The notes: generated from the letters alone by a model not told the origin. DNA of 64,000 nucleotides from Anaeromyxobacteraceae bacterium (GCA_049586815.1 JBAVCR010000182.1:7056-71055), one strand, 5' to 3'. Numbered from the stretch's first letter, positions 41,717 through 62,736 are shown. A program made the numbers and translations.

Positions 41717-41735
41717 CGCCCGCCGCGGCCGTCAC
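41713..41735. terminator. possible bidirectional hairpin between convergent wzc and the 191-aa ORF
   Basis: In GTGACGCCCGCCGCGGCCGTCAC the outer 6 bp are perfectly complementary, with additional inner G:C pairs. The hairpin includes both stop codons. There is no U-tract. Confidence 0.3.
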
Positions 41736-47523: not shown

Positions 47524-47546
47524 GCACCACCTATCGCGATGAGCGA

Positions 47547-47580
47547 CGGCCGCCGGTCCTCGGACCGGCGGCCGATTTCA
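47547..47580 (+). terminator. rho-independent-type terminator after the MCO gene
   Basis: A perfect 13-bp stem CGGCCGCCGGTCC/GGACCGGCGGCCG with a 2-nt centre lies 24 nt after the stop. It is followed by ATTTCAATT. Confidence 0.6.
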
Positions 47581-47781
47581 ATTCCAGGTGTGCCGACGTG
47601 TGGCTGCGGCTAGGCGAGGGGTAAGCACCAGGTAGGGTCGTTGTACTGGAGCGAGCCTAAGGCTTGCCCGTTGAGCTAGAGTGTTGACGGAAGGACCCGG
47701 CAAAGTGCCAAAGAGCGGTGTCCAGGTGAAGCAGCCCGATCCGGTCTGGCGCAGTTCGAGTTCGCGACGCTTGGGTCAGCC

Positions 47782-48546
47782 ATGAGGCTTGGGTTCGGTT
47801 CATCGCGGTTGCACCTGATGCCTTTCGAGAGCGACCGGAGGCGCCTGATCTGGGACGCCCTCGACCTGGGCATTGCCCACTTCGATACGTCGCCCTTCTA
47901 CGGGTACGGCCTGGCCGAAAAGGCCCTGGGCGCGGCGCTGCAGGGACGCCGAGACGTTTCCATCACGACCAAGGTCGGCCTGTACGCGCCTGCGGGAGCG
48001 TCGGATCACTTCGTGAGCATCGCGATGCGAAAGGCAGTGGGTCGCTTGATTGCGCGAACTTCACGACCGGTCGCGGATTACAAACCTCAGATGGCGGAAC
48101 GGAGCCTGGAGAAGTCCCTGAGGGCGCTTCGGGTCGAGCGCGTCGATTTTCTCCTCCTGCACGAGCCGAGGGTGACCCGCGCGGAATCCGATGATCTCAT
48201 CGCGTGGGTCCTTCGAGCTACGGAGCGCGGCATGGTCCGCGCATGGGGAGTGGCGGCCGAGGCTGAGTTGTGCTCCCGGCTGATTGAAGATGATCCAAGA
48301 TGGGGATCGACTGTGCAGACGGGCGCTGGAAAGGGTTGGGAAGCCGCCGAACGCCTCCGGCGAACGGGAGTTGCGATCCACTTCCTATACGGGGCACTGC
48401 GTGAAAACCTTGAACCGACGACCGGCTCGCCCGGGGCGGTGATCGCCGAGGCGATGGCGCGATTTCCCGAGTGCACCGTCCTGGCCTCCACGCGGCAGGG
48501 GGACCGTCTTAGGCAGCTGGCGCTCGCGGCACGAAAGGAAACCTAG
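47782..48546 (+). CDS. aldo/keto reductase
   Basis: 254 aa with LG.GSSRL...........A.D.GI.HFDTSP.YGYG.AE..LG.AL.GRR....I.TKVG and LLLHEP. Confidence 0.8.
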   Translation: MRLGFGSSRLHLMPFESDRRRLIWDALDLGIAHFDTSPFYGYGLAEKALGAALQGRRDVSITTKVGLYAPAGASDHFVSIAMRKAVGRLIARTSRPVADYKPQMAERSLEKSLRALRVERVDFLLLHEPRVTRAESDDLIAWVLRATERGMVRAWGVAAEAELCSRLIEDDPRWGSTVQTGAGKGWEAAERLRRTGVAIHFLYGALRENLEPTTGSPGAVIAEAMARFPECTVLASTRQGDRLRQLALAARKET

Positions 48547-48568
48547 CCTGCTCGTCGATCTCCAGACG

Positions 48569-50113
48569 TTGGATGACCCATACAACTGGGAGGCCGACGT
48601 CTGCGTGATCGGCGCCGGCACTATCGGGTGCTACGTCGCGTCGCGGTTGCAGGAATGGGGCTTTCGGGTGGTCGTGCTCGAATCCGGCTCGCGAAAGACG
48701 GTGGACGGGGCGACCTTCGAGCCGCTCCCGCGAATGGTCCTCGACGGCTACGAGGGGGCGACGAAGGGAAGGTCCTTTGGCCTTGGGGGAACATCGGCGT
48801 CATGGGGTGGCGTGCTCGTCCCGTTCACGGCCCAGGATGCGTCGGCACCGAGCGCACGGAACGGCGCCACGTGGGACCACATCGTCGGTCGCGTGAAGGC
48901 CCACGGAGAGACCGTGCGAAGAGTCCTGGGCATCAATTACCCCGAAGACTTCGAGAAGTTCCCGGATGTGATCTTCGGCGAATCGCGCACGAGGGTGGAA
49001 GCGGAAGGGTTCAGCCTGATCGCTTCGGAGATGCTTCCCTTCGGGGGGCGGAACACGTCGCGCCTGCTGGCCGCCGGGGGAGCACGGGAGTCGAGGGTTC
49101 TGCTCAACGCCACGGCGGTGGAGTGGGACCTCCGACCGTCTCCCGGGGAAGGCTTCGTCTGCAGCGTCCGCGCGGTCACGAGGGACGGCAAGTCGATGGT
49201 TGTGACGGCGGGAAAGTTCATCATCGCCGCCGGCGCGATCGAGTCCGCGCGAATCCTCCTGGAGATCGACCGGGAAACCGACGGAAGGGCCCTGCTCGGG
49301 AGGGAAGGCGTCGGGCGCGAGCTCTCCGACCATCTCTCCCTTCCCATCGGGACCTTCGAGGGACGGGCAGCCCAAGTGGCGATCCGGATGTTCGGTCAGA
49401 GATTTCGCGGACCCGTTCTTCGCGCGCCGAGGTTCATCGACCGGGACGTCATCGCGGCGGGTCGCCGGCACTTCGTGCACGTCACCTTCGCAAGCGACGA
49501 TCCGGGCTTCCTCCTCGCGAAGGAGGTGCTCGCCGCCATGCAGGCCAGGCGCCTGCCATCCCTGACGGTGACCCAGTGCGTCGAGGGAGCCAGGGGGCTC
49601 CTCGGGCTCGCCTGGAAGAAGGTCGGCGAGCGGCGCCTCTACATCCGGCCAGGGACGCCGGCAGGGCTTCGCCTGGACTTCGAGCAGAGCCCCGACCCTG
49701 CGAACCGGATCCGCCTGCGAGACGAGCGGGATTCCACCGGGAGGTGGGGCCTGGACGTCGAGTGGCGCGTCACTCCCTCGGACGAGACCGCCGCGGCCGA
49801 GATCCAGCGAAGTGTGTTGGGCAAGTGGGGTGAGCTCCGGGACGTCCTGCCGCCCGCGACCTCCATCGATAGAGGGCACATCCGCGAACGACTCTACGAC
49901 GTCTATCACCCCGTTGGGGTCTGCAGGATGGGAGAGGATCCGGGGGCCGTTCTCGGTCTTGACCTCCACGTCCGGGGCCTCACCAACCTCTACGTGGTGG
50001 GGACCGCGGCCTTCCCATCGGCAGGGACCGCGAATCCGACCTTTCCCGCCCTGTGCCTGGCGGAGGAGCTGATCTCGACCATGAGGACCGGGGCGAGCCC
50101 CTCCGGACGCTGA
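48569..50113 (+). CDS. GMC-family FAD-dependent oxidoreductase
   Basis: 514 aa. The TTG start at 48569 places the FAD motif DVCVIGAGTIGCYVASRL...G..V.VLESG at residue 10. The C-terminal part reads YHPVG.CRMG ... NLYVVG.A.FPS.G.ANPT. Confidence 0.8.
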   Translation: MDDPYNWEADVCVIGAGTIGCYVASRLQEWGFRVVVLESGSRKTVDGATFEPLPRMVLDGYEGATKGRSFGLGGTSASWGGVLVPFTAQDASAPSARNGATWDHIVGRVKAHGETVRRVLGINYPEDFEKFPDVIFGESRTRVEAEGFSLIASEMLPFGGRNTSRLLAAGGARESRVLLNATAVEWDLRPSPGEGFVCSVRAVTRDGKSMVVTAGKFIIAAGAIESARILLEIDRETDGRALLGREGVGRELSDHLSLPIGTFEGRAAQVAIRMFGQRFRGPVLRAPRFIDRDVIAAGRRHFVHVTFASDDPGFLLAKEVLAAMQARRLPSLTVTQCVEGARGLLGLAWKKVGERRLYIRPGTPAGLRLDFEQSPDPANRIRLRDERDSTGRWGLDVEWRVTPSDETAAAEIQRSVLGKWGELRDVLPPATSIDRGHIRERLYDVYHPVGVCRMGEDPGAVLGLDLHVRGLTNLYVVGTAAFPSAGTANPTFPALCLAEELISTMRTGASPSGR

Positions 50114-50142
50114 TGCCTCACGGGGGCTCGAGAACAGGAACC

Positions 50143-51018
50143 ATGACAGCTTCCCAACACAGCCGTCCCTCGCTCGGCGTCATCATTCTCACCCGGGAAG
50201 AGGAGGAAAACCTTCCAATCGCGCTCGAGAGCCTTCGGCCGCTGCGGCCAATGGTCTTTATCGTCGATTCCGGGAGTTCCGATCGCACCGTGGAGCTCGC
50301 CAGGGAATGGGGATGCGAATGCGCGGCGCGCCCTTGGACGAACTACGCCGACCAGTTCAAGTGGGCGATGGAGCACTGTCCATTCAGCGCGGACTGGTTC
50401 ATGCGAATGGATGCGGACGAGCGCCTGACCGCGGAACTCGCCCGGGAGCTGCCCGAGGCGATCGCGGCCGCCGGGGAGGGGACGGACGGATTTCGGATGC
50501 GGCGACGGGTCTACTTCTGGGGCAAGTGGATCCGACACGGCGGATACTACCCGACGTGGCTCACCCGTGTCTGGCGTGCCGGGCACGCTTCCATCGAATC
50601 ACGCTGGATGGACGAGCACATGGTCGTGCATGGCGGCGGCGTGGCGGCCTTGCAGGGCGACATCATCGACGAGAATCACAAGGGCCTGACGTTCTGGACC
50701 GACAAGCACAATCGATATGCCGACCGGGAAGTGCGGGATCTCCTGGCGATGGCGAGCGCGGAGGCGCCGGCCGCGCAACTCGAAGGTCAGGCGGGTCGCC
50801 GGCGCTGGGTGAAGCAAAACCTCTATGCCCGTTCGCCCCTCTTGCTTCGCGCCGTGGCGTACTGGTTCCTGCGGTACATTGTGCTGCTAGGATTCCTCGA
50901 CGGTCGTCCCGGCTTCGTCTTCCATTTCCTCCAGGGGTTCTGGTACCGCTTCCTCGTGGATGCCAAGTTGCTGGAGGCTCGGCGGAACCAGCAGGGAAGC
51001 GGCTCCGGCGAAGGATGA
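50143..51018 (+). CDS. glycosyltransferase family 2 (WaaE/KdtX-like)
   Basis: It has LGVIILTREEEENLP.AL.SL......FIVDSGSSDRTVE.A ... DW....DADERL. An alternative ATG at 50113 overlaps the upstream stop. Confidence 0.8.
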   Translation: MTASQHSRPSLGVIILTREEEENLPIALESLRPLRPMVFIVDSGSSDRTVELAREWGCECAARPWTNYADQFKWAMEHCPFSADWFMRMDADERLTAELARELPEAIAAAGEGTDGFRMRRRVYFWGKWIRHGGYYPTWLTRVWRAGHASIESRWMDEHMVVHGGGVAALQGDIIDENHKGLTFWTDKHNRYADREVRDLLAMASAEAPAAQLEGQAGRRRWVKQNLYARSPLLLRAVAYWFLRYIVLLGFLDGRPGFVFHFLQGFWYRFLVDAKLLEARRNQQGSGSGEG

Positions 51019-51602
51019 GAGACACTCGAGATTGCGCCATGCAGCGAGCCAAGATCGATCTCGCGTCGTTCGACAACTCCTGGTACTACCCGGGACGATC
51101 GCTCCCGGTCCGCGTGGCCTGGCTGGTCGCGAACGCCGTCATCCTTTCGTCCTGGGTTCCATGGCCGTCGGCCCTAAAGAGGGGATTGCTCAGGCTATTT
51201 GGCGCCAGGGTGGGACGGGGGGTCGTCCTGAAGCCCAAGGTCAACATCAAGTACCCGTGGAACCTCGAGCTGGGTGACCACGCATGGATTGGTGAAGGTG
51301 TCTGGATCGATTCCCTGTCCAGGGTCACCATCGGGCGGAATGCGTGCCTCTCCCAGGGAGTCATGGTGGAGACGGGCAACCACGACTGGTCGAAGGCGAC
51401 CTTTGACCTCGTCCTGAAGGACGTGTCGGTTGAGGAGGGGGCGTGGGCGGCCGTTGGCTCCCTTCTGTTGCCAGGCAGCAAGCTCGCCAGCCATGCGGTC
51501 CTCGGCGCCGGAAGCGTGCTCGCGGGAGGCACGGATCCTTACGCCGTCTACGTCGGCGTGCCGGCCAGGAAGGCGAGGGAGCGCGATGTTCGGGAAGCCT
51601 GA
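51015..51602 (+). CDS. hexapeptide-repeat O-acetyltransferase (WcaF-like)
   Basis: The ATG at 51015 overlaps the upstream stop (ATGA); an alternative ATG lies at 51039. The product has FDNSWY.PGRS, LR.FGA.VG.GVV.KP.V.I.YPW.L..GD..WIGE.VWI and a C-terminal VGVPA. Only the last ~195 codons of the 431-aa track ORF were accepted. Confidence 0.8.
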   Translation: MRDTRDCAMQRAKIDLASFDNSWYYPGRSLPVRVAWLVANAVILSSWVPWPSALKRGLLRLFGARVGRGVVLKPKVNIKYPWNLELGDHAWIGEGVWIDSLSRVTIGRNACLSQGVMVETGNHDWSKATFDLVLKDVSVEEGAWAAVGSLLLPGSKLASHAVLGAGSVLAGGTDPYAVYVGVPARKARERDVREA

Positions 51603-51653
51603 CGCGCGACGCGGCGCAGGAGCCCTGGTATCGGCAGGCGGGCGTGGACGCTA

Positions 51654-52688
51654 ATGGGACGGCCGGAGATGAAGCCCAGCGCCGGGTCGAGGCCCGAGAT
51701 GTTCGTGGTTTCCCGGCTGGCGCATTGCCGGGACCCGGCCAACGGCGCGAGAAAGCGCCTCGACGCCTGGCGAACCCTGCTGCCCGGTTTGCAGGTGGTT
51801 CCGTCGGATGCGCCGCCGCCCGGGGGATGGCCCGGGGGGGACGCCCGGTTCTGCGTCGATCTGACGGGCGCCAAGGCGCCGGAAATCGTCCGGGCGTGGC
51901 GGAACTTCCGGAGCAGGCGTCCGGCGGTGTTCGTGCAAGATTCACAGGCTCGATTCTTCTGGACGGAGTTGCGCTTCCACTTCGGTCGCCGGGACTTCAT
52001 CCGGGCCCTGAAGGCGTCCCTGTCGCTGGCGAGGGGAGCCTCGCGGGAGTACCTGTGTCGACTGCTGTTTCGCGAGGTCGGCTACATCTCCGAGGAAGAC
52101 GCCGGATTCCTCTGGCCCCCGGGTCTGCCCGTGGTCGCGATCCCCGCGATGATCGTCGACGCGCCGCCCGCCGAAGCGAGTCCCGTGCACTGCATGCGGA
52201 CGCTGGGAGTGATCGCCAACTTCGCCTACTCGCCCAACGCCGACGGAACCCGGGCCCTCCTCGCCAGCAGGGTCCTCGGCGATTGCATGAGGCGAAACGG
52301 CCTGAAATGCCGCCTTCTTGGTCATGGCGCGACGGAGTTCCTCGCTTCCCTGCCGGCAGAAGCCGCAGAACTCGTCGATCAGCGAGGATCCGGGCCATTT
52401 GCCGACGTCCAGGAGGTGATAAAGGAGGTCGACGCCGTGGTCTCCCCGGCGATGTACGGTTCCGGGGTGAAGAACAAGATCCTCGAGGCTGCCGCCGCGG
52501 GAAAGCTCTGCTTCGTCTGGAACGGGTTTCGTTCCGAGTACGCCTATGATCCAGAGCTAACGCTGTACTTCGGAGGCGCCACCGACCTGGCGCGGTTGCT
52601 CGACCGCGTGCGCGCGGTCGTCGATGAGTGGCCCGACCAGGACGCCCGCACGCTCCAGCCGAGAATGCAGTTGCTCAGGATCCTATGA
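51654..52688 (+). CDS. glycosyltransferase-like protein (GT-B C-terminal domain only recognisable)
   Basis: The C-terminal segment VVSPAMYGSGVKNKILEAAAAGKLCF resembles the GT1/4 nucleotide-sugar binding motif. The N-terminal half is unrecognised and the start is uncertain (for example the ATG at 51699). Confidence 0.45.
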   Translation: MGRPEMKPSAGSRPEMFVVSRLAHCRDPANGARKRLDAWRTLLPGLQVVPSDAPPPGGWPGGDARFCVDLTGAKAPEIVRAWRNFRSRRPAVFVQDSQARFFWTELRFHFGRRDFIRALKASLSLARGASREYLCRLLFREVGYISEEDAGFLWPPGLPVVAIPAMIVDAPPAEASPVHCMRTLGVIANFAYSPNADGTRALLASRVLGDCMRRNGLKCRLLGHGATEFLASLPAEAAELVDQRGSGPFADVQEVIKEVDAVVSPAMYGSGVKNKILEAAAAGKLCFVWNGFRSEYAYDPELTLYFGGATDLARLLDRVRAVVDEWPDQDARTLQPRMQLLRIL

Positions 52689-53815
52689 CGGACCACGTCT
52701 TCATCGTCGAGAATGCGAAGACGATCTCGCATACCTTCATCCGGGCGGACATCCGCCACGCCGAGGCGAGCGGCCCGGTCACCGTCATCGACATCAGTGA
52801 GGTCTACGCGGCGCTCCTGGGAGGAGATCGAAGCCTGGCCGATGCTGTGCTCGGCGTGTTGGAACTCGTCGTGACAAGTCCGGTTACCCTGATGCGCTGC
52901 CTCGTTGGGGGCAGGGCTCGTTCAAACGCCAAGGCCCTGCTGGTCTACGGAGCGCTGAGGCGCGAATGGGCTAAGCGCGAGCGCTGCTCGTTCACGGTCC
53001 ACTTTGCGGCAAAGGCCGCCCTGGTGGGCACCCTGCTGGCGCGGCCCGGGAGATCGTACCTTCGACTCGTGGTCCACGCGTCCGACCTGTATGGCCTGCC
53101 ACGCAGCATGCACTTCGTCCTAACAGAGGCGACGGCGATCGAGACTGTCACCTGGTTTGCTAAGGGATTCGTTTTCGGGAGGCTCGGAGACGCTGCCATC
53201 GGGAAAGTGACTATGCAGCGAAATCGGGTCGTGCCCGGCCACGCGAGCGACGCCAGACGACTTGAATCATCCTCGGTGGGGCGGAGGCAGTTGTTGACCG
53301 TGGCGCGCCTAGCGACCCAGAAGGACCTCCCGTTTGCCATTCGTGTCTTCGCCGAACTGGTTCATGGCCTGGGACAGGACTGGTGCTACCGGATCGCGGG
53401 CGAAGGGCCGGAGCGCGCGCAACTGGAGGCGATCGCGCGGGACCTCGGGGTGGAGGACCGCGTGGACTTCCTCGGTGCCGTTCCAAACGACGAAGTGCGG
53501 GAACTCTGCGAAGTGTCCGCGGCGTTCCTGCTCCCATGTGCCGAGTCCACGGTCGACGACGCAGACGGCCTGCCCGTCGTGTTCCAGGAGGCACTCCTCG
53601 CGGGCTGCCCGGTCTTCTGCAGGTCGGCCTTCGGCGTCGCCGAATTGGTCGTCGACGGGTTCAACGGCCGCTCCTTCCCCGTGGATGCCACACCGGTAGA
53701 GTGGGCACGGGCGATCACCTCGGACCTCGCCACGCTCAATCCCGTTTCCATTCGAGCCCTGGCGCGGTGTCAGAACGAGCGCTCCGTGGCCGATCGCAGT
53801 ATCGGGGGCGGGTAG
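52685..53815 (+). CDS. glycosyltransferase family 4 (WcaL-like)
   Basis: The ATG at 52685 overlaps the upstream stop (ATGA). The product is 376 aa with LLTVARL...KDL..A......L.......Y.I.GEGPER..LE..A..LGV.DRV.FLG and LPC......D.DGLPVV.QEAL..G.PV. Confidence 0.8.
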   Translation: MTDHVFIVENAKTISHTFIRADIRHAEASGPVTVIDISEVYAALLGGDRSLADAVLGVLELVVTSPVTLMRCLVGGRARSNAKALLVYGALRREWAKRERCSFTVHFAAKAALVGTLLARPGRSYLRLVVHASDLYGLPRSMHFVLTEATAIETVTWFAKGFVFGRLGDAAIGKVTMQRNRVVPGHASDARRLESSSVGRRQLLTVARLATQKDLPFAIRVFAELVHGLGQDWCYRIAGEGPERAQLEAIARDLGVEDRVDFLGAVPNDEVRELCEVSAAFLLPCAESTVDDADGLPVVFQEALLAGCPVFCRSAFGVAELVVDGFNGRSFPVDATPVEWARAITSDLATLNPVSIRALARCQNERSVADRSIGGG

Positions 53816-53828
53816 GGGCGCTGAGAAA

Positions 53829-54977: not shown

Positions 54978-54999
54978 TTCTTGGAAATGGGAAAGGACC

Positions 55000-55788
55000 G
55001 TGGGTGATTCCTGTTGCGTGCTTGAACTCGTCACTCCGAACGAACGCGCCCGGCATGGGTTTTCGATGAAGTGGCAAGAAGCCTACATGAGGCGGTTTTA
55101 CGACCCAGGATCCGGGTTCGTGGATGGCACGACGGAATTCTGGAACCTTTGCCGTAAAGTGATCTCCCCTGGGAGCAAGATCCTCGAGATCGGGTCAGGG
55201 CCGTCCAACGCCACGTCTCAGACGCTAGCGGCGATCGGCGAACTTCATGGGATAGATCTGGATCCCGATGTCAGGGAGAATAGTGCCCTAACTGCAGCGC
55301 ATGTGATTGGTTCGACGGATCCGTTTCCGGCCAATGACGAGGAGTACGATGCATGCGTTTCCGACTTCGTGCTGGAGCACGTTGAGCATCCCGACCGCCA
55401 CCTCCGAGAAATCAACAGAGTCCTAAGACCGGGCGGGACCTATGTGTTCCGGACCCCGAATCGTTGGCATTATGTTTCAGTGATCGGGTCGATGACCCCC
55501 TTCTGGTTCCATCGCCTCGTGTCCCACCGGGCCCGGGGACTCACGGGAGGCGAGCACGAGCCCTATCCCACATTCTACAGAATGAATTCCGCGACGCACG
55601 CGAGGGCTCTGGCGTCGGAGCATGGGCTGGTCCCCGAGCAGATCCGCATGATCGAGAAGGAGCCTTCCTATGCCATGCAGTCGAGGATCCTATTCCTAAC
55701 CTTCATGGCTTACGAACGGGTGGTCAACTCCAGCGACAGGCTTGGCTTCCTCCGAGCCAATATCCTCGGCGTACTACGCAAGCCGTGA
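55000..55788 (+). CDS. class I SAM-dependent methyltransferase
   Basis: SAM motif I is ILEIGSGPSN, with an acidic post-I residue (GIDLD) and RVLRPGGTYVF. The start is either the GTG at 55000 or the ATG at 55066. Confidence 0.75.
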   Translation: MGDSCCVLELVTPNERARHGFSMKWQEAYMRRFYDPGSGFVDGTTEFWNLCRKVISPGSKILEIGSGPSNATSQTLAAIGELHGIDLDPDVRENSALTAAHVIGSTDPFPANDEEYDACVSDFVLEHVEHPDRHLREINRVLRPGGTYVFRTPNRWHYVSVIGSMTPFWFHRLVSHRARGLTGGEHEPYPTFYRMNSATHARALASEHGLVPEQIRMIEKEPSYAMQSRILFLTFMAYERVVNSSDRLGFLRANILGVLRKP

Positions 55789-55900
55789 GCAACGATCCGA
55801 TGCCCTGCCGGCGACGGGAACGCGGAAGTCAAGTCGGACCCAACCGCATTGCGATCATGGATTCGCCGCGTGGGCGTCCAGCGGCGCCGCGGGAGCCGGA

Positions 55901-57106
55901 ATGAAAATCCTGCAAGTCTGCCCAGCCTACTACCCGGCGATCGCGATCGGAGGCCCGGTCTTTTCTGCCATGGCGTTCGCGGGCGCAGCGATCGAGTGCG
56001 GCCATCAGGTCGACGTCGTGGCCACGCCCCTCGGCTTGACGCCCAAGCAGAAGGAAACAATAAACTATGCGCACTTAGAGGACGGGCCCCATCACGTTCG
56101 CATTGTCTACAAGCGATTCTTTGGGCACACGCACTACACCTTCGCTCCATCAATCGTGCCGTGGCTGATGAGCCACGTAGGCGGCTACGATCTAGTCGTC
56201 ATGCACGGGATCTGGGGGTTCCCGATCATGGCCGGGGCACTCGCGGCACGCTGGGCGGGCGTTCCCTACCTCATCTTTCCGCACGGCACGCTCTACAGAG
56301 AGACCATCGAGCTCAAATCCAAGGCGCTCAAGAAGGTGGCGCTCACGACATGGGTCCTGGACGCCCTTCGCCGCGCATCTGGGGTCATCTTCACCTCGAA
56401 CGACGAGGCCGACAAGGTTTCCGAATATCTCAATGTGTCCTTCAAGCAATGGATCGTGCCGAACATCATTCCGTCGACCGACTTTGCGGAATTGCCGCCC
56501 CGCGGCGCCTTCCGGCGCCTTCACGGAATACCTGATGATGTCGCCCTAATTCTCCACTACGGACGAGTGGCGAAAAAGAAGGGCATCGAGTTCGTGGTCG
56601 AAGCCCTAGCGTCCCTCGGCCGGGAAATACCGGATGCTGTATTGGCCGTCGTAGGCGGTGACGAGTTTGGTTACAGGGCAGGCCTAGAGAGGTTCGTTGA
56701 ATCGGCGGGGATGTCCAATCGTGTTGTTTTCAGCGGACTAGTCGATAGGGCCGCCGGGCTCCAGGCGATGGCGGACTCCGACATATTTGTATTGCCGAGT
56801 TTGTCCGAGAACTTCGGGATGGCCGTGGTTGAAGCGATGCTGTGTCATTTGCCGGTTGTTATTTCCGACCACGTTGGGATCGCCACGGAAGTGGCCGGCG
56901 CTGGCGCGGGGGTCGTCGTGCGGCTGGCCAGGATGGAGCAGGATCTGCCAAGAGTCCTGTCCACGCTGCTACGGGATCCAGCAGAACGGCGACGCTTAGG
57001 CATTGCGGGACATGCATTCGCCACCTCGACGTACGACATCGCTGCCGTGAAGCCGCGCATTGCTGAAATGCTGGAGTCCGTGATGTCGACGGGTGGCCTC
57101 TCGTGA
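55901..57106 (+). CDS. glycosyltransferase family 4
   Basis: The ATG at 55901 gives MKILQVCPAYYP..GGP. The product is 401 aa with the C-terminal core GR...KKG.......A.........L..VGGD, VLPS.SENFGMAVVEAM....PV..SD. The track start at 55742 was rejected. Confidence 0.85.
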   Translation: MKILQVCPAYYPAIAIGGPVFSAMAFAGAAIECGHQVDVVATPLGLTPKQKETINYAHLEDGPHHVRIVYKRFFGHTHYTFAPSIVPWLMSHVGGYDLVVMHGIWGFPIMAGALAARWAGVPYLIFPHGTLYRETIELKSKALKKVALTTWVLDALRRASGVIFTSNDEADKVSEYLNVSFKQWIVPNIIPSTDFAELPPRGAFRRLHGIPDDVALILHYGRVAKKKGIEFVVEALASLGREIPDAVLAVVGGDEFGYRAGLERFVESAGMSNRVVFSGLVDRAAGLQAMADSDIFVLPSLSENFGMAVVEAMLCHLPVVISDHVGIATEVAGAGAGVVVRLARMEQDLPRVLSTLLRDPAERRRLGIAGHAFATSTYDIAAVKPRIAEMLESVMSTGGLS

Positions 57107-57212
57107 AGTTGTCAGAATGGAGTCGAAGTATCAGACGGGGGGGTGCCGTTAGATCCGTCGTCCCAAGAGCGAGACGGTCCGCCACGATTCAAGGGATCGG
57201 TGCGCAGAAAAG

Positions 57213-57965
57213 GTGGCAATGCGAAGGCCGGTGAAGCGAGACGATTCAACGAGGGGCGTTCCGCGCTTTGCCTTCGGAAGCTCCGTGATTCCCGATGGAG
57301 CGTCCGTCTTGGATTTTGGATGCCACAAGGGGGCGTTCGGAAAGGTGCTGGCGCCGCGCCGAACGGTTCGATACGTGGGAATCGATAAGAGCCAGGACGC
57401 CGTGAGAGGCGCCGAAGCGGGCCTCGACGTCCGAAACTACTCGTTCCCCTTGCCTTTTGCTGATGAGGAATTCGATGTCGTGACGATGTTTGAAGTGCTC
57501 GAGCACATCAAGGATCAGCATCGAGTGCTCCGAGAGGTGCATCGCGTGCTGCGGCCAGGGGGAAGCCTGGTGGTGTCCGTGCCGCGGCAGCACGTGTTCT
57601 CCTTCATGGATCTTGGGAATCTGAAGTTTCGATTGCCCCGCGTTCACAAATGGTACTACTCGCGGACCCGGTCGCCGCAAGCGTACTCCGTCAGGTACGA
57701 GCGAAGCCCCGACGGGCTGGTCGGCGATGTCGAGGTCGAGAAGAGATGGCATCAGCACTTCTCCAAACGTGAAATGGATGAGTTGCTGGCTGGAGCCGGA
57801 TTTCGCCTTGCAGAGGTGGATGGGGTCGGCCTGTTCGCGCAGCCGCTAGGAATCATCGGGTACGTGTTGGGGGGACGGGTCGAGTGGATCCGGCGCCTTC
57901 AGGAATGGGACAGCTACGCCTTTGAGAGCAGTTCGTTGATTTGCGTCGCCAAGAAGGTCGCCTAA
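57213..57965 (+). CDS. class I SAM-dependent methyltransferase
   Basis: It has VLDFGCHKG (motif I), GIDKS, FDVVTMFEVLEHI and VLRPGGSLVVSVP. The start is either the GTG at 57213 or the ATG at 57219. Confidence 0.8.
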   Translation: MAMRRPVKRDDSTRGVPRFAFGSSVIPDGASVLDFGCHKGAFGKVLAPRRTVRYVGIDKSQDAVRGAEAGLDVRNYSFPLPFADEEFDVVTMFEVLEHIKDQHRVLREVHRVLRPGGSLVVSVPRQHVFSFMDLGNLKFRLPRVHKWYYSRTRSPQAYSVRYERSPDGLVGDVEVEKRWHQHFSKREMDELLAGAGFRLAEVDGVGLFAQPLGIIGYVLGGRVEWIRRLQEWDSYAFESSSLICVAKKVA

Positions 57966-58195
57966 AAAGTCTATGAGGCAGGAAGGAGTGCCGCTTGGGG
58001 CGGGCCCCAGACAGCGAGCGGAGTTCGGAGGGAATGGCCGTGGACGCGGATGGTGGTCCTCTCGGACGAATGTGCCTCCAAAGTCCTTCTCCACGGAACG
58101 AAGGCAGGTATGGGCGGGCGCCGGTCGCGGCGAAGTAATGCCGCATCTAAGGTCAACCTGCTGACCGTACGCGAGGGGACCTGGAGGGAGCGTTG

Positions 58196-59323
58196 ATGAG
58201 TGTCGATCCCAGGCCTCGCGTAGCCATTGGATGCCACGGAGATTGGTATGCAAGACGCATAGCTGCGATCTTGCAAGGCGAAGGAATGCTCCAGTTCTTC
58301 GCAACCGTGCACCCTCCCGGGGAGTGTGCAGGAGCGCTTGGGGGTCATATCCGGTATTTCCCCTCGTTCAGGGTGGGATTATTGCCACTACGTTGGGCTC
58401 GTCGATTCAACGCATTCGAGAGCAAGTACCTGTTTCGAGAGTATCAGCGATTTGACCGTTCTTTCGCGAGGATGCTGAACGCCGATACAACGCACGTCTT
58501 TGCGTATGCCTCGATGTGCCGACGCACCTTGGCGAGGGCAAAAAGGTTGGGGGTGTCCAGCGCTCTCGTGTTGTGCAATTCGCATGTCCTCATCCATAAG
58601 AGGGCGTACGAAGCATCCTCGGCGGGAAGAATGACGATTAGCCAGAACTTCGTGGACGCGCAATTGGAGGAGTACGAGTTGGCGGACCGCATTCTGGTCG
58701 AGTCGGAATACGTGCGAAATGGGCTCGTGGTGATGGGGGTGCCCGAATCGAAGATCGTCTGTTCTCTCCCTGGGCCAGAGCGAAACCTGGAACTCGGAGT
58801 GAGCGTGGAGAAGGACGACCGGGCGATCTTCGGAACCGTTATGTGTGGACCTCGCAAGGGAACCGAGCTTCTGTTGAAGTGGTGGGGCACCCTGGCATTG
58901 CCAGGGGCCGAACTGTGGCTCATTGGGGGGGGATGCGAACAACGGGAGGGGGAGGATGCCCCAGGTGTCCGGAGGTGGAGCACGTTGCCCTCCCGAGCCT
59001 ATCGGGAACTTCTGAGGCGCCTGGACGTCGTACTATTTCCAACCTTTGAGGATGGCGGCCCGCGAAGCCTCTTCGAGGCGATGGGGGTTGCGGCGTGCCC
59101 GATCACTTCGCAGTACTGCGCCGGGCCGGAACACATTGTCGAAGGCGCGACGGGCTTCGTAATACCACTCGAGCACGAGAGCGAGTGGATGGCGCGGATG
59201 AAATGGTGCGCGTCCAATCTGGGGGCAGTGAGGTCAATGGGACGCAAGGCGTCGATTTACGTGAGCACGAACCTTGCCCCCGATCATTTTGAGCGGACCA
59301 TTCGCGCCCTCGTGCTGGGCTAG
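58196..59323 (+). CDS. glycosyltransferase (GT-B, family 1/4-like)
   Basis: The ATG at 58196 follows GGAGGGAG. The C-terminal EX7E-type segment is LFPTFEDGGPRSLFEAMGVAACPITS. The N-terminal domain is divergent. Confidence 0.6.
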   Translation: MSVDPRPRVAIGCHGDWYARRIAAILQGEGMLQFFATVHPPGECAGALGGHIRYFPSFRVGLLPLRWARRFNAFESKYLFREYQRFDRSFARMLNADTTHVFAYASMCRRTLARAKRLGVSSALVLCNSHVLIHKRAYEASSAGRMTISQNFVDAQLEEYELADRILVESEYVRNGLVVMGVPESKIVCSLPGPERNLELGVSVEKDDRAIFGTVMCGPRKGTELLLKWWGTLALPGAELWLIGGGCEQREGEDAPGVRRWSTLPSRAYRELLRRLDVVLFPTFEDGGPRSLFEAMGVAACPITSQYCAGPEHIVEGATGFVIPLEHESEWMARMKWCASNLGAVRSMGRKASIYVSTNLAPDHFERTIRALVLG

Positions 59324-59329
59324 GCCGGG

Positions 59330-59569
59330 ATGACCAGCCTCTTGAGCGAGGAGAAGACGCAGCAGGTGGTGACGCTGGGGAAGCCGGGGTGGCCCCTGCG
59401 CCGCATCGAGGAAGAGACTGCGGCCCGCATGCCATCGCAATCGATGGTTGGGCGCCCGAGCGCATCTGGGGCGGAGAAACGCCCGAAAACTAACGAGCAC
59501 GAGCAATCGCGCGCAGCCACGTGCCATCGGACGCTTCAACCCAGGGAGCTCGAACGTGTCTTGGGGTGA
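59330..59569 (+). pseudogene. possible remnant of an IS-transposase N-terminal helix-turn-helix
   Basis: The 79-aa ORF MTSLLSEEKTQQVVTLGKPGWPLRRIEEETAA... recalls the HTH leader of some IS transposases (pattern L.EEK.QQV..LG..GW.LRRIEE.T). It then degenerates and overlaps the 3' end of the convergent methyltransferase gene. It was recognised from memory only. Confidence 0.2.
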
Positions 59570-60446
59570 GCCGATAACGCATCGAGTGGAAGCCGATGCG
59601 AGCCGAGCGGACGACCTTGAATATCGCTTGCGGCAGGAGGCGCCGGACCGTGGCGGTTGCTTCAGCAACGGCTTGTGGCTGAGTAGGGAGAGCGCGGCCG
59701 AATGAGCCCAGGCGGAGAACTTCGAGGCCAGCCCGGCCCAATAGCGTGCTGAGGCTGGCGCCGGAGAAGAACTGCAAATGGGGGACATCCGAACCGCCTT
59801 GGTCCCGCGGAAGCACCATTCGCGAAGCAGGATCGTGGGGGACCTCCAAGGACAGAAGTCCGCCGGGGACCAGCAACTTCATCGCATCCTCGACGAACGC
59901 GGTCGGGCAACTGCTGTGCTCCAGGACATGTGAGGCGTGAACCCATTCCACGCGTCCCAATGCGGCCTGGACCGTGTGGACTGAACCACTGTGCCCCCAG
60001 TTGACGCGGATAACCCGAGCACCGTGCCGCCGTAGACGAGAGCCGAGTGACTCATCGAGTTCAATTGCGCTGAGGTGGTGAAAGCCTCGTTCTTCCACCG
60101 CTCGAAGAAAGTGCCCATAACCTGCGCCAACATCTAAGACTCGAACATCTCTAGAGATCGGGACAGTGCTGAGTACCAAACTCACTTGAGCGCGGGCGTG
60201 ATCCATTTGCCGCTGATCGTAGGCAAAATAACCCATCGGATCCTGCGGGCCATTCCCGGTCCAGTAGCAACTGCCATAGTAGGCTTCAAGGGCAGAAGAG
60301 GCTGGCGAAGGGGCGGCAAATGAATGAGTGCATGAAGTGCAATGACAGATAGCAAGGCCCCGAAACGGCGACTCACCCTCCCCGGCGCTGTAGTCCCGAA
60401 GTCGTTCCACGCTGCCGGATGTGCAAACGGGGCAACTTGCAATCAT
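59490..60446 (-). CDS. class I SAM-dependent methyltransferase with N-terminal Cys4 zinc-ribbon
   Basis: 318 aa with CPVC...14...CHCTSC at the N-terminus. SAM motif I is VLDVGAGYGHF, followed by AIELD and LLVPGGLLSLEVP. Confidence 0.75.
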   Translation of the reverse strand: MIASCPVCTSGSVERLRDYSAGEGESPFRGLAICHCTSCTHSFAAPSPASSALEAYYGSCYWTGNGPQDPMGYFAYDQRQMDHARAQVSLVLSTVPISRDVRVLDVGAGYGHFLRAVEERGFHHLSAIELDESLGSRLRRHGARVIRVNWGHSGSVHTVQAALGRVEWVHASHVLEHSSCPTAFVEDAMKLLVPGGLLSLEVPHDPASRMVLPRDQGGSDVPHLQFFSGASLSTLLGRAGLEVLRLGSFGRALPTQPQAVAEATATVRRLLPQAIFKVVRSARIGFHSMRYRLTPRHVRAPWVEASDGTWLRAIARAR

Positions 60447-60470
60447 CGGTGGATACCAAGGTCCATATCT

Positions 60471-62006
60471 TCACGCACGCTGCAAAGCGCCCTTCAAGTA
60501 ACTACGATCCTCGCGCGTAAGTCCGAACATTGCGGAGGAGCAGGCCAGGAAAATCGCGACGAGGGCGGCCTTGGCGGCGACCTCCCACCACCTTGTCGCA
60601 TGGAAATGGGAAGCAGCAAAGAGGGAGATCCAGGCGGGCAAGGCCATGCGAAACAGAGGCGCGCAGACCGAATCCCAGGCAAGGCGCAGCCTGGGCGTGG
60701 AAAAGACACCAGCGATGTCCGCGAACATTACCGGTCCCGAGGTCGCGAGCCATGCCAGGGCCGACGCGACCGCGATGCCGGGGAGGCCTAGCCAGTAGAG
60801 CATGCCGAGACCCAGCGCGATCTTCAGGGAGGCCTCCAGCAGACTGACAAGTGAAATGCGCCGGAGATGCCCGGTGGCCGTCAACAGCGTCGTCGGAAAG
60901 GCCCCGTAGCCGACCAGGGCAGTTGCGCACACGCTCCACCAATTCAATGCGCTGGATCCCAAGCGGTCGGCTCCGACCCAGACCACGACGAACTCAGCAT
61001 TGACGGTGCCCGCGACCAGGCCGGCGCACACGATGCCGAGGACAACCAATCTGCTCGCCCTTTCGTACGTCGCCATGAGTTGAACGGATAGGCCCTGGGT
61101 CCAGAGTTGAGTGAGCCCTGGCAGGGTCATCGGAATGACTCGGGTCGCGAGCGTAATCGCGGATTGTATGGCGCGTAGAGTTATGACGTACACGGTAACG
61201 GCGGCCGGGCCAAGAGTCATTCCAATGAGGATCCCATCCGAGCCGCGCGTGGCAGCGTTCGCGAGCTTCTGCATGAACGTGAGGCGAGTCACGCGCCAGA
61301 GTTCCGAGAGGACCGCGTTGTCCGCTGAAGGCGCGGTGCGGCGGTTCCTGTCGGTGATGCTCCTGGTTGCCAGCTCCGAACCGAAGTAGAAGACGCTTGC
61401 GGAGGCGACTTGAGAACACGCCAGTCCGACGAGGCCAAACCCCGCCGCTACGAGTGCAACAGAGACCACGCCGTCCGCGATCGCACGCACCAACAGTAAT
61501 CTATTGAACGTTCCAAGGCGTTGCTGGGCTTGCAGGACATCGGGGGCGAGGCTCATGGGCATGAGCATTGCGGAGCCACCAGCCATGATGGCGAAAGCAC
61601 CAGCTATCTCCACCTGAGAAACCCCATCCCAGGCAAGTGGGGCGTAGAGTAAAACCAGCGCGACCACCGCTCCTACCAACCAAATCGCCCAGCTGATTCG
61701 CCGGTAAACCCAGGAAATTGTCGTCCGTGTCAAATCGTGCAGTCGGGCGTCGCCTTCCTGGGCGATGACCAAGGAGCGAACGGATCCTGTCGAGAAACCG
61801 AAGTCGAGCAGGCCGAGATATCCTTGAATCTGGAGCAACACCGCCCAGACACCGTATTGGGTAGCCCCAAGTCTTGTAAGCAGGAATGGCGTAGTTGCGA
61901 ATGCGATGGCGAGGTTTACAATGGTCGATGCATAAGAGGAGGAAACGCCACCGAGGAGAGCTCGGAAGCGACTGCGTGATGGCGTGCGTGCGATGTCGCG
62001 TGTCAC
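60471..62006 (-). CDS. wzx: Wzx-type flippase / polysaccharide biosynthesis membrane protein, copy 2
   Basis: Polytopic, with YASTIVNLAIAFATTPFLLTRLG...YGVWAVLLQ at the N-terminus. The start was assigned to the GTG at 62006. The track ORF runs to 62117 through a Pro/Ser-rich leader. Confidence 0.7.
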   Translation of the reverse strand: MTRDIARTPSRSRFRALLGGVSSSYASTIVNLAIAFATTPFLLTRLGATQYGVWAVLLQIQGYLGLLDFGFSTGSVRSLVIAQEGDARLHDLTRTTISWVYRRISWAIWLVGAVVALVLLYAPLAWDGVSQVEIAGAFAIMAGGSAMLMPMSLAPDVLQAQQRLGTFNRLLLVRAIADGVVSVALVAAGFGLVGLACSQVASASVFYFGSELATRSITDRNRRTAPSADNAVLSELWRVTRLTFMQKLANAATRGSDGILIGMTLGPAAVTVYVITLRAIQSAITLATRVIPMTLPGLTQLWTQGLSVQLMATYERASRLVVLGIVCAGLVAGTVNAEFVVVWVGADRLGSSALNWWSVCATALVGYGAFPTTLLTATGHLRRISLVSLLEASLKIALGLGMLYWLGLPGIAVASALAWLATSGPVMFADIAGVFSTPRLRLAWDSVCAPLFRMALPAWISLFAASHFHATRWWEVAAKAALVAIFLACSSAMFGLTREDRSYLKGALQRA

Positions 62007-62736
62007 TGACGGAACCGTGGCGCTCCTGAGTACGCTGAAGGGTGGCGCAGGGTGGCTGGGGGCGAATGGTCGAGACCAGCTAGATGGGAAGGCATGCCAC
62101 TGCGCCCCGAAATGCACCCGCGATGGACGAGCCCAACCTCAAGTTGCAAATCCTCAGGATCGAAAACGGAATCCTGCGCGAAGACCGGCGGCCCAATGCG
62201 GCATGAACGTTGGATGGGGGTATCCACCTTGCAGCCGGGGAAGCGGGCAATAAAAATGGTTGGCAGATCTTGGAGCAAGAAGGAAACCGGCAAACACTCC
62301 CTCTGTGATGTTACCTAGAACCCAAGACGATAACACTCTTGCGCTTGTGTGTCGGGAGCCGCCCAGTTCCTGAAGAAGATCAGCCCGCAGGGGGAGGAGG
62401 GAGTCAAAGCGCTCGCGAGTCCTCATTGGGGCGCAGACGGCCGGGCGTCCCTGCAAAGACTCCGGGCGATTGCATTGTCCCAGGAAACGCGATGCGCACG
62501 CGTCGGTATCGGAAACGGCTGATAGTCGATAAGCCAAGAAGCGCACCGGAGAACCCAAATGGTTCCGGAACGCCTGAGCACCAAACGGGTGAAGCTAGAG
62601 CGCCTTGCCCCACCTCTACCGCGACACCGCTTTCCCTGGGCTGGCAAGAGCGCGTACATCTACACGTCTAATGGATGGCAGGCGGTTCCATCGCTGGGGA
62701 ACTTCTCCGGTCATCACGCATCCCGCCAAGTGACAG

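Follow-up and report, generated by a model that had tools for sequence, protein, structure and literature searches.

A probable horizontally exchanged centre in a Wzx/Wzy-dependent polysaccharide locus of an uncultured Anaeromyxobacter-like myxobacterium

Within the 64,000-nucleotide stretch of DNA analyzed here (hereafter, the window), which comes from the metagenome-assembled genome (MAG) of an uncultured Anaeromyxobacter-like myxobacterium, a block of glycan genes stands out by its low G+C content and raises the question of whether it was acquired horizontally or is an ancestral part of its locus. We conclude that the segment at approximately 47.15-62.74 kb is very probably the variable, repeat-unit-specific centre of a Wzx/Wzy-dependent, Wza/Wzb/Wzc-exported polysaccharide locus and that it has been exchanged horizontally. 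Conserved export and priming genes around a swapped variable centre are a familiar pattern in O-antigen and capsule loci, and the finding is in that respect real but ordinary.

Composition of the island

The region 47547-62736 contains 62.5% G+C, compared with 72.1% for the whole 3.77-Mb assembly, and is the G+C minimum of the assembly at both scales: none of the 662 other 9-kb windows and none of the 230 other 15-kb windows are as low. In a sliding-window analysis, the G+C fraction is 0.68-0.72 in the flanks, 0.645-0.685 at 47-54 kb, 0.576-0.637 at 54-63 kb and 0.722 at 63-64 kb. Island genes have GC3 values of 0.61-0.84, under the genome median of 0.955; the 11 that were ranked among the 2264 called genes with a length of 150 aa or more fall at percentiles 0.13-7.1 (for two further island genes, the GC3 value alone was obtained), and all six ranked genes of the second half lie under percentile 0.5. 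The sharp drop in composition that the first-pass annotation had deduced from spot counts of 36, 28, 31, 46 and 43 G+C per 60 nucleotides, all five exact on recount, proved under both analyses to be strong and genome-extreme. The unevenness noted inside the island is real as well: G+C is 66.0% at 47547-53828 and 60.1% at 53829-62736, with a drop at 53.8 kb that spans about 400 bp. At this step, mean GC3 changes from 0.793 (six genes, range 0.74-0.84) to 0.696 (seven genes, range 0.61-0.72), with complete separation of the two sets (Mann-Whitney p=0.003), and GC1 changes from 0.672 to 0.622 (p=0.018).

Conserved flanks and island boundaries

The resident left flank encodes, on the plus strand, the low-molecular-weight phosphotyrosine phosphatase Wzb (37812-38276; Pfam LMWPc, E=2.4e-35; GC3 0.99), which is syntenic with, and 68% identical at the amino acid level to, its counterpart in the related genome G005; a Wza-type outer-membrane polysaccharide export protein (38273-39385; Pfam Poly_export and SLBB_2; GC3 0.97; 68% identity to G005); and the PCP-2a tyrosine autokinase/co-polymerase Wzc (39404-41716; 64% identity to G005), which matches Pfam Wzz, WZC_N, GNVR and AAA_31 as well as NCBIfam Wzc (E=1e-162; 543 bits, under the equivalog cutoff of 1068). 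These are followed by a small membrane-anchored oxidase-partner gene on the minus strand (41732-42307; one N-terminal transmembrane segment; 51% identity to the G005 counterpart in syntenic position) and a plus-strand gene for a large, secreted multicopper-oxidase-like protein of 1624 aa (42649-47523; partial matches to Pfam Cu-oxidase_2 and NCBIfam PhsA/CueO), both also resident. In G005, all five genes are found in the same order, at about 73% DNA identity.

The left break falls within the oxidase gene. The protein is collinear with that of G005, at 62% identity, over residues 28-1531 (up to about 47.24 kb), the last repeat is 36% identical to the last repeat of G005, and the blastn match to G005 on this side stops at 46923. 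From 47149 onward, in-frame GC3 is 0.64-0.80, down from 0.96-1.00, such that the final ~375 nt of the gene are of island-type composition and the remainder is resident. Accordingly, although the island itself stands, the start assigned to it previously, 47547, does not: the loss of homology and the fall in GC3 define a left junction zone (47149-47546, plus strand) comprising the last Ig-like repeat and stop codon of the oxidase, with the break some 300-400 bp leftward of that start, at ~47.15-47.25 kb. Immediately downstream of the oxidase gene lies an intrinsic-terminator-like hairpin (47547-47574, plus strand) with a 12-bp stem, including 11 GC pairs, followed by ATTTCAATTC.

On the right, the border is a divergent non-coding intergenic region (62007-62736) of island-type composition that contains only short overlapping ORFs, the two tested of which (62154-62558 and 62339-62671) had no Pfam match. 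DNA homology restarts at exactly position 62747 in G005, G009 and G003, all three of the same genus (78-81% DNA identity), so that the composition step and the homology break coincide within bases, at 62737-62747. The first resident gene of this flank (62737-63936, plus strand; GC3 0.91) encodes a GT4 glycosyltransferase of the WcaI family (NCBIfam NF007640, E=3e-53, under the cutoff) that is 79-80% identical to the proteins of G005, G009 and G003 and 56-57% identical to those of other genera, and tracks the phylogeny. Directly downstream, beyond the window end, is a priming transferase of the WecA/MraY family, 76-83% conserved across the genus and likewise tracking the phylogeny. With export genes (Wzb, Wza, Wzc) upstream and a priming gene just past the window, the arrangement agrees with the earlier proposal of a horizontally acquired module in a resident scaffold. 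The genes of the left flank are more diverged from G005 (62-68% identity) than those of the right flank (79-83%), so some of the "resident" scaffold may likewise have been exchanged.

Gene content of the island

The plus-strand operon begins with a short aldo/keto reductase (AKR; 47782-48546; 254 aa; GC3 0.74) that aligns with positions 2-139 of the 291-position Pfam Aldo_ket_red model (E=3e-18) and is 33% identical to a 344-aa AKR of G009, which is separated from the downstream WcaI by a single GMC-like gene. The AKR is a candidate sugar-modifying enzyme. Next is a GMC-family FAD oxidoreductase (48569-50113; Pfam GMC_oxred_C, E=3e-19), for which no orthologue was detected in 40 relatives, the top match (29%) being the G009 protein adjoining WcaI. 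The GT2 glycosyltransferase that follows (50053-51018; Pfam Glycos_transf_2) also has no orthologue among the 40 relatives; its top match there (41%) is in a different family of the same order, and it is 44-45% identical to the GT2 proteins of the outside cassettes L105 and L118 (see below). A WcaF-family O-acetyltransferase (51015-51602; NCBIfam NF007797, 197 bits, cutoff 192) belongs to the variable set; its pairwise identities in four genomes are star-like, at 63-68%, whereas WcaI tracks the phylogeny. Three adjacent genes form a trio: a GT-B-fold glycosyltransferase (51654-52688; weak match to Pfam Glyco_trans_1_4) and a GT4 glycosyltransferase (52628-53815; Pfam Glycos_transf_1, E=2e-24), respectively 33-41% and 36-45% identical to their counterparts in L105, L117 and L118, and the polytopic protein discussed below. 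The operon continues with a SAM-dependent methyltransferase (55000-55788; Pfam Methyltransf_11, E=4e-15), an HpsP-like GT4 glycosyltransferase (55742-57106; Pfam Glycos_transf_1, E=2e-29, and Glyco_trans_4_4; NCBIfam HpsP, E=4e-52, under the cutoff), a second methyltransferase (57213-57965; Pfam Methyltransf_23, E=2e-24) and, as its final gene, a GT-B glycosyltransferase (58193-59323; Pfam Glyco_trans_1_4, E=8e-11). A third methyltransferase (59490-60446, minus strand; Pfam Methyltransf_23, E=3e-17) lies downstream of the wzx gene and is co-transcribed with it; in L105 and L106, too, Wzx is followed by a methyltransferase, to which the island enzyme is 39% identical, making the Wzx-methyltransferase pair syntenic.

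The minus-strand Wzx (60471-62006) is a lipid-linked oligosaccharide flippase of the MOP superfamily. The reading frame is open up to 62117, with the GTG at 62006 as the probable start. The NCBIfam WZX_like match is partial (E=3e-11), homologues belong to PF01943/PF13440 and are named "oligosaccharide flippase", and no orthologue was found in 40 relatives. The best PDB matches of the AlphaFold2 model (pLDDT 88), each at a probability of 1.0, are WzxE (9g9n; target-normalised TM-score 0.81) and MurJ (query-normalised TM-score 0.71-0.76). Sequence identity to these proteins is just 12-16%, and the island protein exceeds WzxE in length by about 100 residues, but the fold is shared and backs the earlier assignment of an opposite-strand Wzx. 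The description of the cassette as "self-contained" was overstated because the island carries no precursor, priming or export genes.

The third trio gene (53829-54977, plus strand) encodes a polytopic membrane protein of 382 aa with ~9-10 membrane-embedded helices and a conserved loop of about 85 residues; R168, K208, F209, N219, R223, P257, R260, E268 and A283 are invariant. The family is unnamed and rare: a set of 1.84 billion proteins contains just 15 representatives. Pfam and NCBIfam searches, fold comparison with the PDB and hhalign comparison with Wzy_C proteins all yielded no match, so that of the earlier "Wzy-like polytopic protein", the polytopic gene stands and the Wzy identity has no counterpart in sequence or fold. 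In all four outside contexts examined, which are glycosyltransferase-rich polysaccharide loci, the gene adjoins the GT4 gene: the latter is directly upstream in L117, L118 and the P0017 contig, and downstream, within the same trio, in L105. Here, the two are 13 bp apart. Each of these contexts contains a Wzx except for the 8.7-kb copy of L117, and the longer JGI copy of L117 has one. Given its topology and conserved gene neighbourhood, this protein is most likely the Wzy repeat-unit polymerase, for which it is the only candidate in the island, and it belongs to none of the described Wzy families. The previous gene list otherwise mostly stood, with the amendments that 53829-54977 is the sole polytopic polymerase candidate, that 55742-57106, ruled out as Wzy, is the GT4 enzyme identified by its Pfam domains, and that the AKR is short, matching the first half of the Pfam model.

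The slot in related genomes and cassettes elsewhere

The comparison with relatives involved species-level representatives, mostly MAGs, and is thus a comparison between species; it showed no case of allelic replacement inside a species. In four of these (G005, G009, G019 and L026), the same slot is of low G+C and its gene content is unlike that of the island. In G005, it is occupied by another low-GC cassette of 21 kb, with its own Wzx (PF13440), GT4s, a GT2, an epimerase and an amidotransferase. The block had been predicted to be variable between conserved flanks, and this is what synteny shows within the genus: the flanks are conserved, and the slot holds different Wzx-containing cassettes. 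The opposite case, the same block in all relatives, was looked for, and Wzx, GMC oxidoreductase and GT2 had no orthologue in any of the 40.

Unrelated contigs from metagenomes, with 42-57% G+C, carry similar cassettes that encode the nearest homologues of the island proteins (24-45% identity). The trio recurs in these outside cassettes, and L105 additionally has the Wzx-methyltransferase pair. The L105 cassette (GC3 0.55-0.67) lies beside host-type DNA (GC3 ~0.81) without a homologue in the present genome. No donor lineage was identified for the island; given that identity to the nearest homologues is only 24-45%, either the transfer is old or the source is unsampled.

Origin of the cassette

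That the block is ancestral, its low G+C resulting from mutation or selection specific to the locus (through weak expression or membrane proteins), would account for the fact that all relatives examined are also low-GC in the slot, which makes low G+C a property of the locus and not of this genome alone. This is nevertheless very unlikely, as the slot contents are non-homologous among genomes of the same genus, island-specific genes are missing from the relatives, the composition step meets the homology break on the right within bases, soluble enzymes are AT-shifted as much as membrane proteins, and in an unrelated organism the same cassette type is again low in G+C where the adjoining DNA is high. 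Even less probable is a classical mobile genomic island inserted site-specifically by an integrase or transposase: the slot is filled in relatives by a different cassette rather than being an empty site, the window contains no tRNA gene, the flanks show no credible direct or inverted repeats, and the Pfam search detected no integrase, transposase or recombinase domain in the island ORFs. A 79-codon ORF (59330-59569), considered as an IS-transposase HTH remnant, was rejected, having no Pfam match at E<=1 and no related genomic copy. We give just as little credence to an assembly or binning artefact, that is, a foreign low-GC fragment joined into the contig. The genome is indeed a fragmented MAG of 667 contigs, in which the island contig, at 90.9 kb, far exceeds the next longest (33 kb), but an artefact would take two chimeric joins that place a glycan cassette exactly where G005 and G009 carry theirs. 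Moreover, both flanks are collinear with G005, the GC3 fall starts within the intact oxidase ORF, and the genes are coherently oriented and organized, with a terminator, a plus-strand operon and a divergent promoter region.

A closer call is whether the exchanged centre was assembled in two layers, with 47.2-53.8 kb (AKR, GMC, GT2, WcaF, GT-B, GT4) and 53.8-62.7 kb (polytopic protein, three methyltransferases, GT4, GT-B, Wzx) entering separately in time or from sources that differ in G+C, as could happen if homologous cassettes later recombined to yield a mosaic. The abrupt G+C step, the full GC3 separation and the GC1 difference speak for it, and segments of unequal G+C in O-antigen clusters are classically taken to reflect different histories (PMC3715488); the circulation of homologous cassettes in hosts of 42-57% G+C makes mosaic recombination feasible. 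However, the step splits the GT4/polytopic pair that is maintained in the outside contexts; the single cassette L105 matches both halves at similar distance (GT2 45%, GT4 39%, Wzx 42%, methyltransferase 39%); orthologues in relatives are missing for both halves; and L117 is the closest of three sequenced outside cassettes for the GT-B and the GT4 and, by score, for the polytopic protein, which gives no sign of different sources. On balance, we consider two layers a serious possibility, slightly less likely than not.

For the exchanged centre as a whole, arrival would have been by replacement of an entire cassette, with recombination within or close to the conserved genes on either side and without an integrase-type element, one putative crossover lying within the oxidase gene at its 3' end and the other where wcaI begins, and the ultimate source would have had a G+C content below that of the host. 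In the proposed assembly pathway, the resident WecA-type transferase downstream of the window would prime undecaprenyl phosphate; a repeat unit of roughly 6-7 sugars would be built by the resident WcaI-family enzyme and five island glycosyltransferases (one GT2, four GT-B/GT4); WcaF would probably add O-acetyl groups to the unit, up to three SAM methyltransferases would methylate it, and the AKR/GMC redox pair may modify it further. The lipid-linked unit would then be flipped by the island's own Wzx and polymerised, most likely, by the 382-aa polytopic protein, with chain length and export presumably under the resident Wzc, Wzb and Wza.

Comparison with known polysaccharide loci

In Klebsiella K-loci, the terminal genes are conserved and the centre with wzx and wzy is variable, with recombination in wzc and gnd (PMC5359410). 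The present locus resembles the Klebsiella pneumoniae K-locus, the Escherichia coli group 1 capsule and the colanic-acid loci, from which the WcaF and WcaI family names derive, in that conserved export genes (wza, wzb, wzc) flank a variable centre of locus-specific glycosyltransferases, modifying enzymes, wzx and wzy, the last being a candidate here. It differs from that group in its host, a 72%-GC myxobacterial MAG; in priming by a WecA/MraY-family PNPT at the far end instead of WbaP/WcaJ; in the separation of wzc from the variable region by the multicopper oxidase (1624 aa) and the small partner gene; in the absence of wzi, galF, gnd and ugd; and in a polymerase candidate outside the described Wzy families, the comparison here being between species, not strains. 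Closer to the host, the EPS, BPS and MASC polysaccharides of Myxococcus xanthus are reportedly made by Wzx/Wzy-dependent pathways with OPX (Wza), PCP (Wzc) and phosphatase (Wzb) components, several per genome. The likeness extends to the phylum, to Wzx/Wzy-dependent assembly with Wza, Wzc and Wzb, and to the presence of two such pathways in the window, whereas the island Wzx, GMC and GT2 have no orthologues even in the same order. The O-antigen clusters of Salmonella and E. coli are, in the Reeves model, low-GC and laterally acquired, with sub-segments that differ in G+C and rml genes near the flank that are nearer to host composition (PMC3715488). The island shares with them the low G+C and the sub-segments of unequal G+C, the offset here being ~10-12 points from a 72% baseline, but it is paired with Wza/Wzb/Wzc export, which favours a capsule or secreted EPS over an O antigen as its product.

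Gene content and composition of the glycan cassette

On the left, the scaffold comprises Wzb, Wza and Wzc genes at 37.8-41.7 kb (37812-41716), which matched Pfam LMWPc, Poly_export plus SLBB, and Wzz, WZC_N, GNVR and AAA_31, respectively; Wzc additionally matched the NCBIfam Wzc model (E=1e-162), such that the OPX protein (Wza), the PCP-2a tyrosine kinase (Wzc) and the LMW phosphatase (Wzb) are all encoded in the locus. A small membrane gene and a gene for a 1624-aa multicopper-oxidase-like protein separate Wzc from the cassette. On the right, a WcaI-family glycosyltransferase (62737-63936) with a host-type GC3 of 0.91 is followed, just past the end of the window, by a WecA/MraY-family priming transferase (64059-65543, or positions 1615-3099 of the extended locus L001) that matches Pfam Glycos_transf_4 with E=9e-41 and, below the cutoff, NCBIfam WecA with E=4e-34. 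The first-pass annotation was thus correct in stating that the low-GC block itself contains no priming or export genes, both functions being encoded immediately outside it.

The block starts with a short AKR of 254 aa (47782; Pfam match to the first half of the model only), a GMC oxidoreductase (48569), a GT2 (50053), a WcaF-family acetyltransferase (51015, scoring above the NCBIfam cutoff), a GT-B (51654) and a GT4 (52628), followed by a polytopic 382-aa protein without an assigned family (53829-54977). Further downstream are a methyltransferase (55000), an HpsP-like GT4 (55742; Pfam and NCBIfam), a second methyltransferase (57213) and a GT-B (58193), then, on the minus strand, a third methyltransferase (59490) and a polytopic Wzx candidate with a partial WZX_like match (60471-62006), which approximately 730 bp of non-coding DNA separate from the WcaI-family gene. 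Unless otherwise indicated, the enzyme assignments within the block are based on Pfam matches. The 55742 product is not a membrane polymerase. The order of the enzymes, the size of the repeat unit, the targets of methylation and the role of the AKR and GMC proteins are matters of prediction. A non-orthologous AKR (344 aa, 33% identity) and GMC (27-29%) pair is encoded directly upstream of WcaI, at 2.7 kb, in the same-genus genome G009 (locus L018), and this recurrence of the couple in the slot hints at a functional pairing. A promoter scan was uninformative (2 matches vs 2.7 expected).

The composition of the block is extreme for this 3.77-Mb assembly (667 contigs, 72.1% G+C). All five 60-base spot counts of the first-pass annotation proved exact on recount, and sliding-window G+C and GC3 analyses confirmed the compositional drop that it had claimed. 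In 1-kb windows, G+C is 0.68-0.72 in the flanks (0.722 at 63-64 kb), 0.645-0.685 at 47-54 kb and 0.576-0.637 at 54-63 kb; overall, it amounts to 62.5% for the whole block, 66.0% for 47547-53828 and 60.1% for 53829-62736. None of the 662 nine-kb windows and none of the 230 fifteen-kb windows elsewhere in the assembly is equally low. With genes called on the basis of frame-specific G+C, GC3 is 0.91-0.99 in the flank genes vs 0.61-0.84 in the island genes. When 11 of the latter were ranked for GC3 against the 2264 genes encoding 150 aa or more, they fell between percentiles 0.13 and 7.1, and all six ranked genes of the second half were below percentile 0.5. Further small clusters of low-GC3 genes (0.65-0.80) are present on contigs C122, C50 and C335 of the same assembly, in which the contig analyzed here, C182, is by far the longest (90.9 kb, the next being 33 kb).

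Comparison with relatives and delineation of the breakpoints

A search of 40 relatives, all of them species representatives and many of them metagenome-assembled genomes (MAGs), with the WcaI sequence detected orthologs with 77-80% identity in four genomes of the same genus and with 56-60% identity in three other genera; orthologs of the WecA-type gene in the relatives' MAGs are 76-83% identical. In one of the same-genus genomes, G005, the gene order is Wzb, Wza, Wzc, small gene and oxidase, then a 21-kb low-GC region, then WcaF, WcaI, WecA and the same downstream genes. The left-flank genes of G005 show 51-68% amino acid identity and about 73% DNA identity to those analyzed here, and WcaI and WecA are 79-83% identical. 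With the exception of WcaF and generic GT4 matches, the 21-kb region showed no homolog of an island gene at E<1e-10; among the products of this center are a Wzx of its own (PF13440), a 478-aa protein without a Pfam family, several GT4s, a GT2, an epimerase and an amidotransferase-like protein. Whole-genome searches of the 40 relatives likewise revealed no ortholog of the Wzx (best match 22-27%), and the same set contained no ortholog of the GMC oxidoreductase (a single 29% match, next to WcaI in G009) or of the GT2 (best match 41%, in another taxonomic family of the same order). At the level of species and genera compared here, the expectation for a Wzx/Wzy-dependent locus of the K-locus/group-1-capsule type, conserved flanks around a variable central gene content, is therefore borne out.

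Other members of the genus retain WecA and the downstream genes and differ upstream. The slots of the relatives are likewise low in G+C: in locus L026, the slot is a region of 58-61% G+C with a non-orthologous glycosyltransferase. In another relative, a WcaI remnant of only 37 residues (76% identity) lies immediately upstream of WecA (L031:9762-9872), with host-type G+C further upstream, and this fragment has the appearance of a scar left when a cassette was lost or replaced.

These comparisons delimit the cassette closely. On the right, DNA homology with three same-genus genomes (G005, G009 and G003) starts at 62747, ten bases into wcaI. On the left, collinear protein homology of the oxidase to its G005 counterpart stops at residue 1531 of 1624, the in-frame GC3 drops from 0.96-1.00 upstream to 0.64-0.80 from 47149 on, and the last Ig-like repeat (47149-47523) is only 36% identical to the last repeat of the G005 protein, vs 62% overall. 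Taken together, the end of homology, the GC3 drop and the diverged last repeat place the left junction within the oxidase gene, between about 47.15 and 47.25 kb. At 2156 aa, the G005 oxidase homolog is longer than the 1624-aa protein of this locus, and the C-terminal repeats thus differ in number. WcaF, which adjoins WcaI in three relatives (G005, G019 and G018), was considered as a displaced resident gene; this reading was rejected because the identities of WcaF are star-like (63-68% for each pair among four genomes), in contrast to those of WcaI, which follow the phylogeny, and WcaF is assigned to the exchanged set.

The Wzx candidate

The 60471-62006(-) product has no Pfam match by hmmscan, scores 43 bits against WZX_like (cutoff 300) and does not reach the curated family scores of PF01943, PF13440 or NF041503; its 456-aa form has a precomputed PF13440 match in the protein database, and its distant homologs carry PF01943/PF13440 and are named oligosaccharide flippase. 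For an AlphaFold2 prediction based on 12 sequences (pLDDT 88), the best PDB matches are the lipid III flippase WzxE (target-normalized TM-score 0.81) and MurJ, both with probability 1.0; there are 55 PDB matches at E<=0.001, and all of the 50 listed are WzxE, MurJ or MATE proteins. We accept this protein, which has the 12-14 TM fold of the MOP superfamily, as a MOP flippase despite its sub-curated family scores.

Related cassettes in metagenomes and the donor

No close relative of the cassette was found among 185,579 species-representative genomes. The closest Wzx, with 42% identity, is encoded on a metagenome contig (L105, positions 1-19070, run ERR12084920) that also carries homologs of the following methyltransferase (39%), the GT2 (45%), the GT-B/GT4 pair (35-39%), the polytopic protein (31-37%, partial) and two further glycosyltransferases (24-30%). 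The cassette of this contig, with GC3 of 0.55-0.67, lies beside 4 kb of DNA with GC3 of about 0.81, the genes of which have no homolog in the present genome; hence, this type of cassette is a low-GC island in an unrelated organism of high G+C as well. The host-type genes of this contig include one with a DnaJ domain and one for Wzy_C, and its cassette additionally contains a carbamoyltransferase that is absent here. The trio of GT-B (51654-52688), GT4 (52628-53815) and polytopic protein is repeated on contigs L117 (51.5% G+C) and L118 (42% G+C) and on a JGI contig. A search for the donor with the GT4 of the trio (a single protein and a 4-sequence alignment) produced only chance-level GT4 matches of 31-34% in Emticicia, Pontiella and a Nitriliruptorales MAG. 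The donor is probably an unsampled organism with a lower G+C content than the host.

The change of G+C inside the block, at about 53.8 kb, was originally taken to suggest at least two acquisition layers. The step is clear in statistical terms, and recombination at a later time, between homologous cassettes that differ in G+C, would be compatible with the data. The step coincides with the 13 bp that separate the GT4 from the polytopic gene, and these two genes are neighbors in all other cassettes seen. L105 contains distant relatives of genes from both halves, with similar identities, and for each gene of the trio the closest of the sequenced outside cassettes is L117. The undivided pair and the common relatives argue against two unrelated sources, and we give two acquisition layers slightly less than an even chance.

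A polytopic protein as the polymerase candidate

Besides Wzx, the 53829-54977 product is the only polytopic protein of the block. It has no Pfam match at E<=5 and no NCBIfam match at E<=0.1; a genome-contig search detected no close relatives, and a homologous-protein search returned just the protein itself. The family has only 15 representatives among 1.84 billion proteins, and 14 distant relatives were recovered by an exhaustive HMMER scan alone. Alignment with hhalign to two Wzy_C proteins showed no profile similarity (probability 0.1), and a Foldseek search of the PDB seeded with the AF2 model (pLDDT 80.7, pTM 0.81) yielded no match at E<=0.001, with best TM-scores of about 0.1-0.2. Sequence, profile and fold comparisons gave no match to Wzy_C (PF04932), to another named Wzy family or to a solved membrane glycan polymerase or ligase. 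The protein contains about 9-10 membrane-embedded helices and a conserved loop of about 85 residues; the invariant R223, R260 and E268 are part of this loop, and R168 and K208 mark its edges.

In all four outside contexts examined, the polytopic gene adjoins the GT4 gene amid further GT-B-type genes. Wzx is in the same cluster in all of these except the short L117, the longer JGI copy of which does have Wzx. Three of the four contexts showed no second polymerase candidate, and the Wzy_C gene of L105 is located in the host-type flank. This genomic context supports a polymerase role for the 53829-54977 product as a candidate Wzy. We tentatively suggest, as a less than even prospect, that this protein and its approximately 15 relatives represent an unrecognized, structurally distinct class of membrane enzymes that act on Und-PP-linked glycans. 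Most likely, the protein would polymerize repeat units, would be related to the Wzy_C/WaaL types neither in sequence nor in fold and would form an obligate module with the adjoining GT-B and GT4. Such a rare, uncharacterized polytopic family with a conserved GT-B/GT4 partnership is a candidate new type of polymerase that lends itself to study.

Mode of acquisition

No tRNA gene was detected in the window, no credible repeats flank the block, and no recombinase, integrase or IS was found among the island ORFs. A 79-codon ORF at the strand switch (59330-59569) was considered as an IS-HTH remnant, but this reading found no support: the ORF has no Pfam match at E<=1, does not continue in other frames, and nothing related to it was detected elsewhere in the genome. 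The block thus does not show the recombinase gene, attachment site or tRNA, and flanking direct repeats of an integrase-type genomic island. The slots of the relatives contain alternative cassettes, and no empty site was found. In the K-loci of Klebsiella, replacement occurs via homologous recombination in the conserved flanks (PMC5359410), and a similar replacement via the conserved flanking genes would fit the locus analyzed here.

The repeat-unit cassette is genuine, has well-defined limits, was exchanged horizontally and is embedded in a scaffold of conserved export and priming genes. The architecture is textbook and the lineage is new, with the orphan polymerase candidate as the one mildly novel element. 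The organization of capsule and O-antigen loci, with a conserved scaffold and a swappable low-GC center, is thus extended to uncultured soil Anaeromyxobacter-like myxobacteria, implying that cassette exchange diversifies surface glycans in an environmental lineage of 72% G+C, too. The locus definition, with breakpoints known to within tens of bases, can be used for typing these MAGs; apart from this definition and the polytopic family, the result is an expected one.

The first cassette

A separate first cassette does exist at 14.7-37.7 kb and encompasses rmlABD, Wza-like, Wzz-like, Wzx, Wzy_C and glycosyltransferase genes, an acyl-carrier cassette and PglC/D/E/F-like genes. This cassette (taken as 11.9-37.7 kb in the comparison with G005) may be lineage-specific too: in G005, its place upstream of Wzb is occupied, at the contig end, by an inverted HNH gene (G005:C5:1-1900, 53% identity). 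The GDP-mannose 4,6-dehydratase frame at 11875-14844(-) is about twice the normal length, with the GDP_Man_Dehyd match in two pieces and a weak LAGLIDADG_3 match between them, suggesting an intein-interrupted gmd. A GDP-fucose-synthase-like epimerase (13914-14858) overlaps gmd in another frame, and an HNH-endonuclease gene (10602-11822, minus strand) adjoins this gmd region (11875-14858, minus strand).
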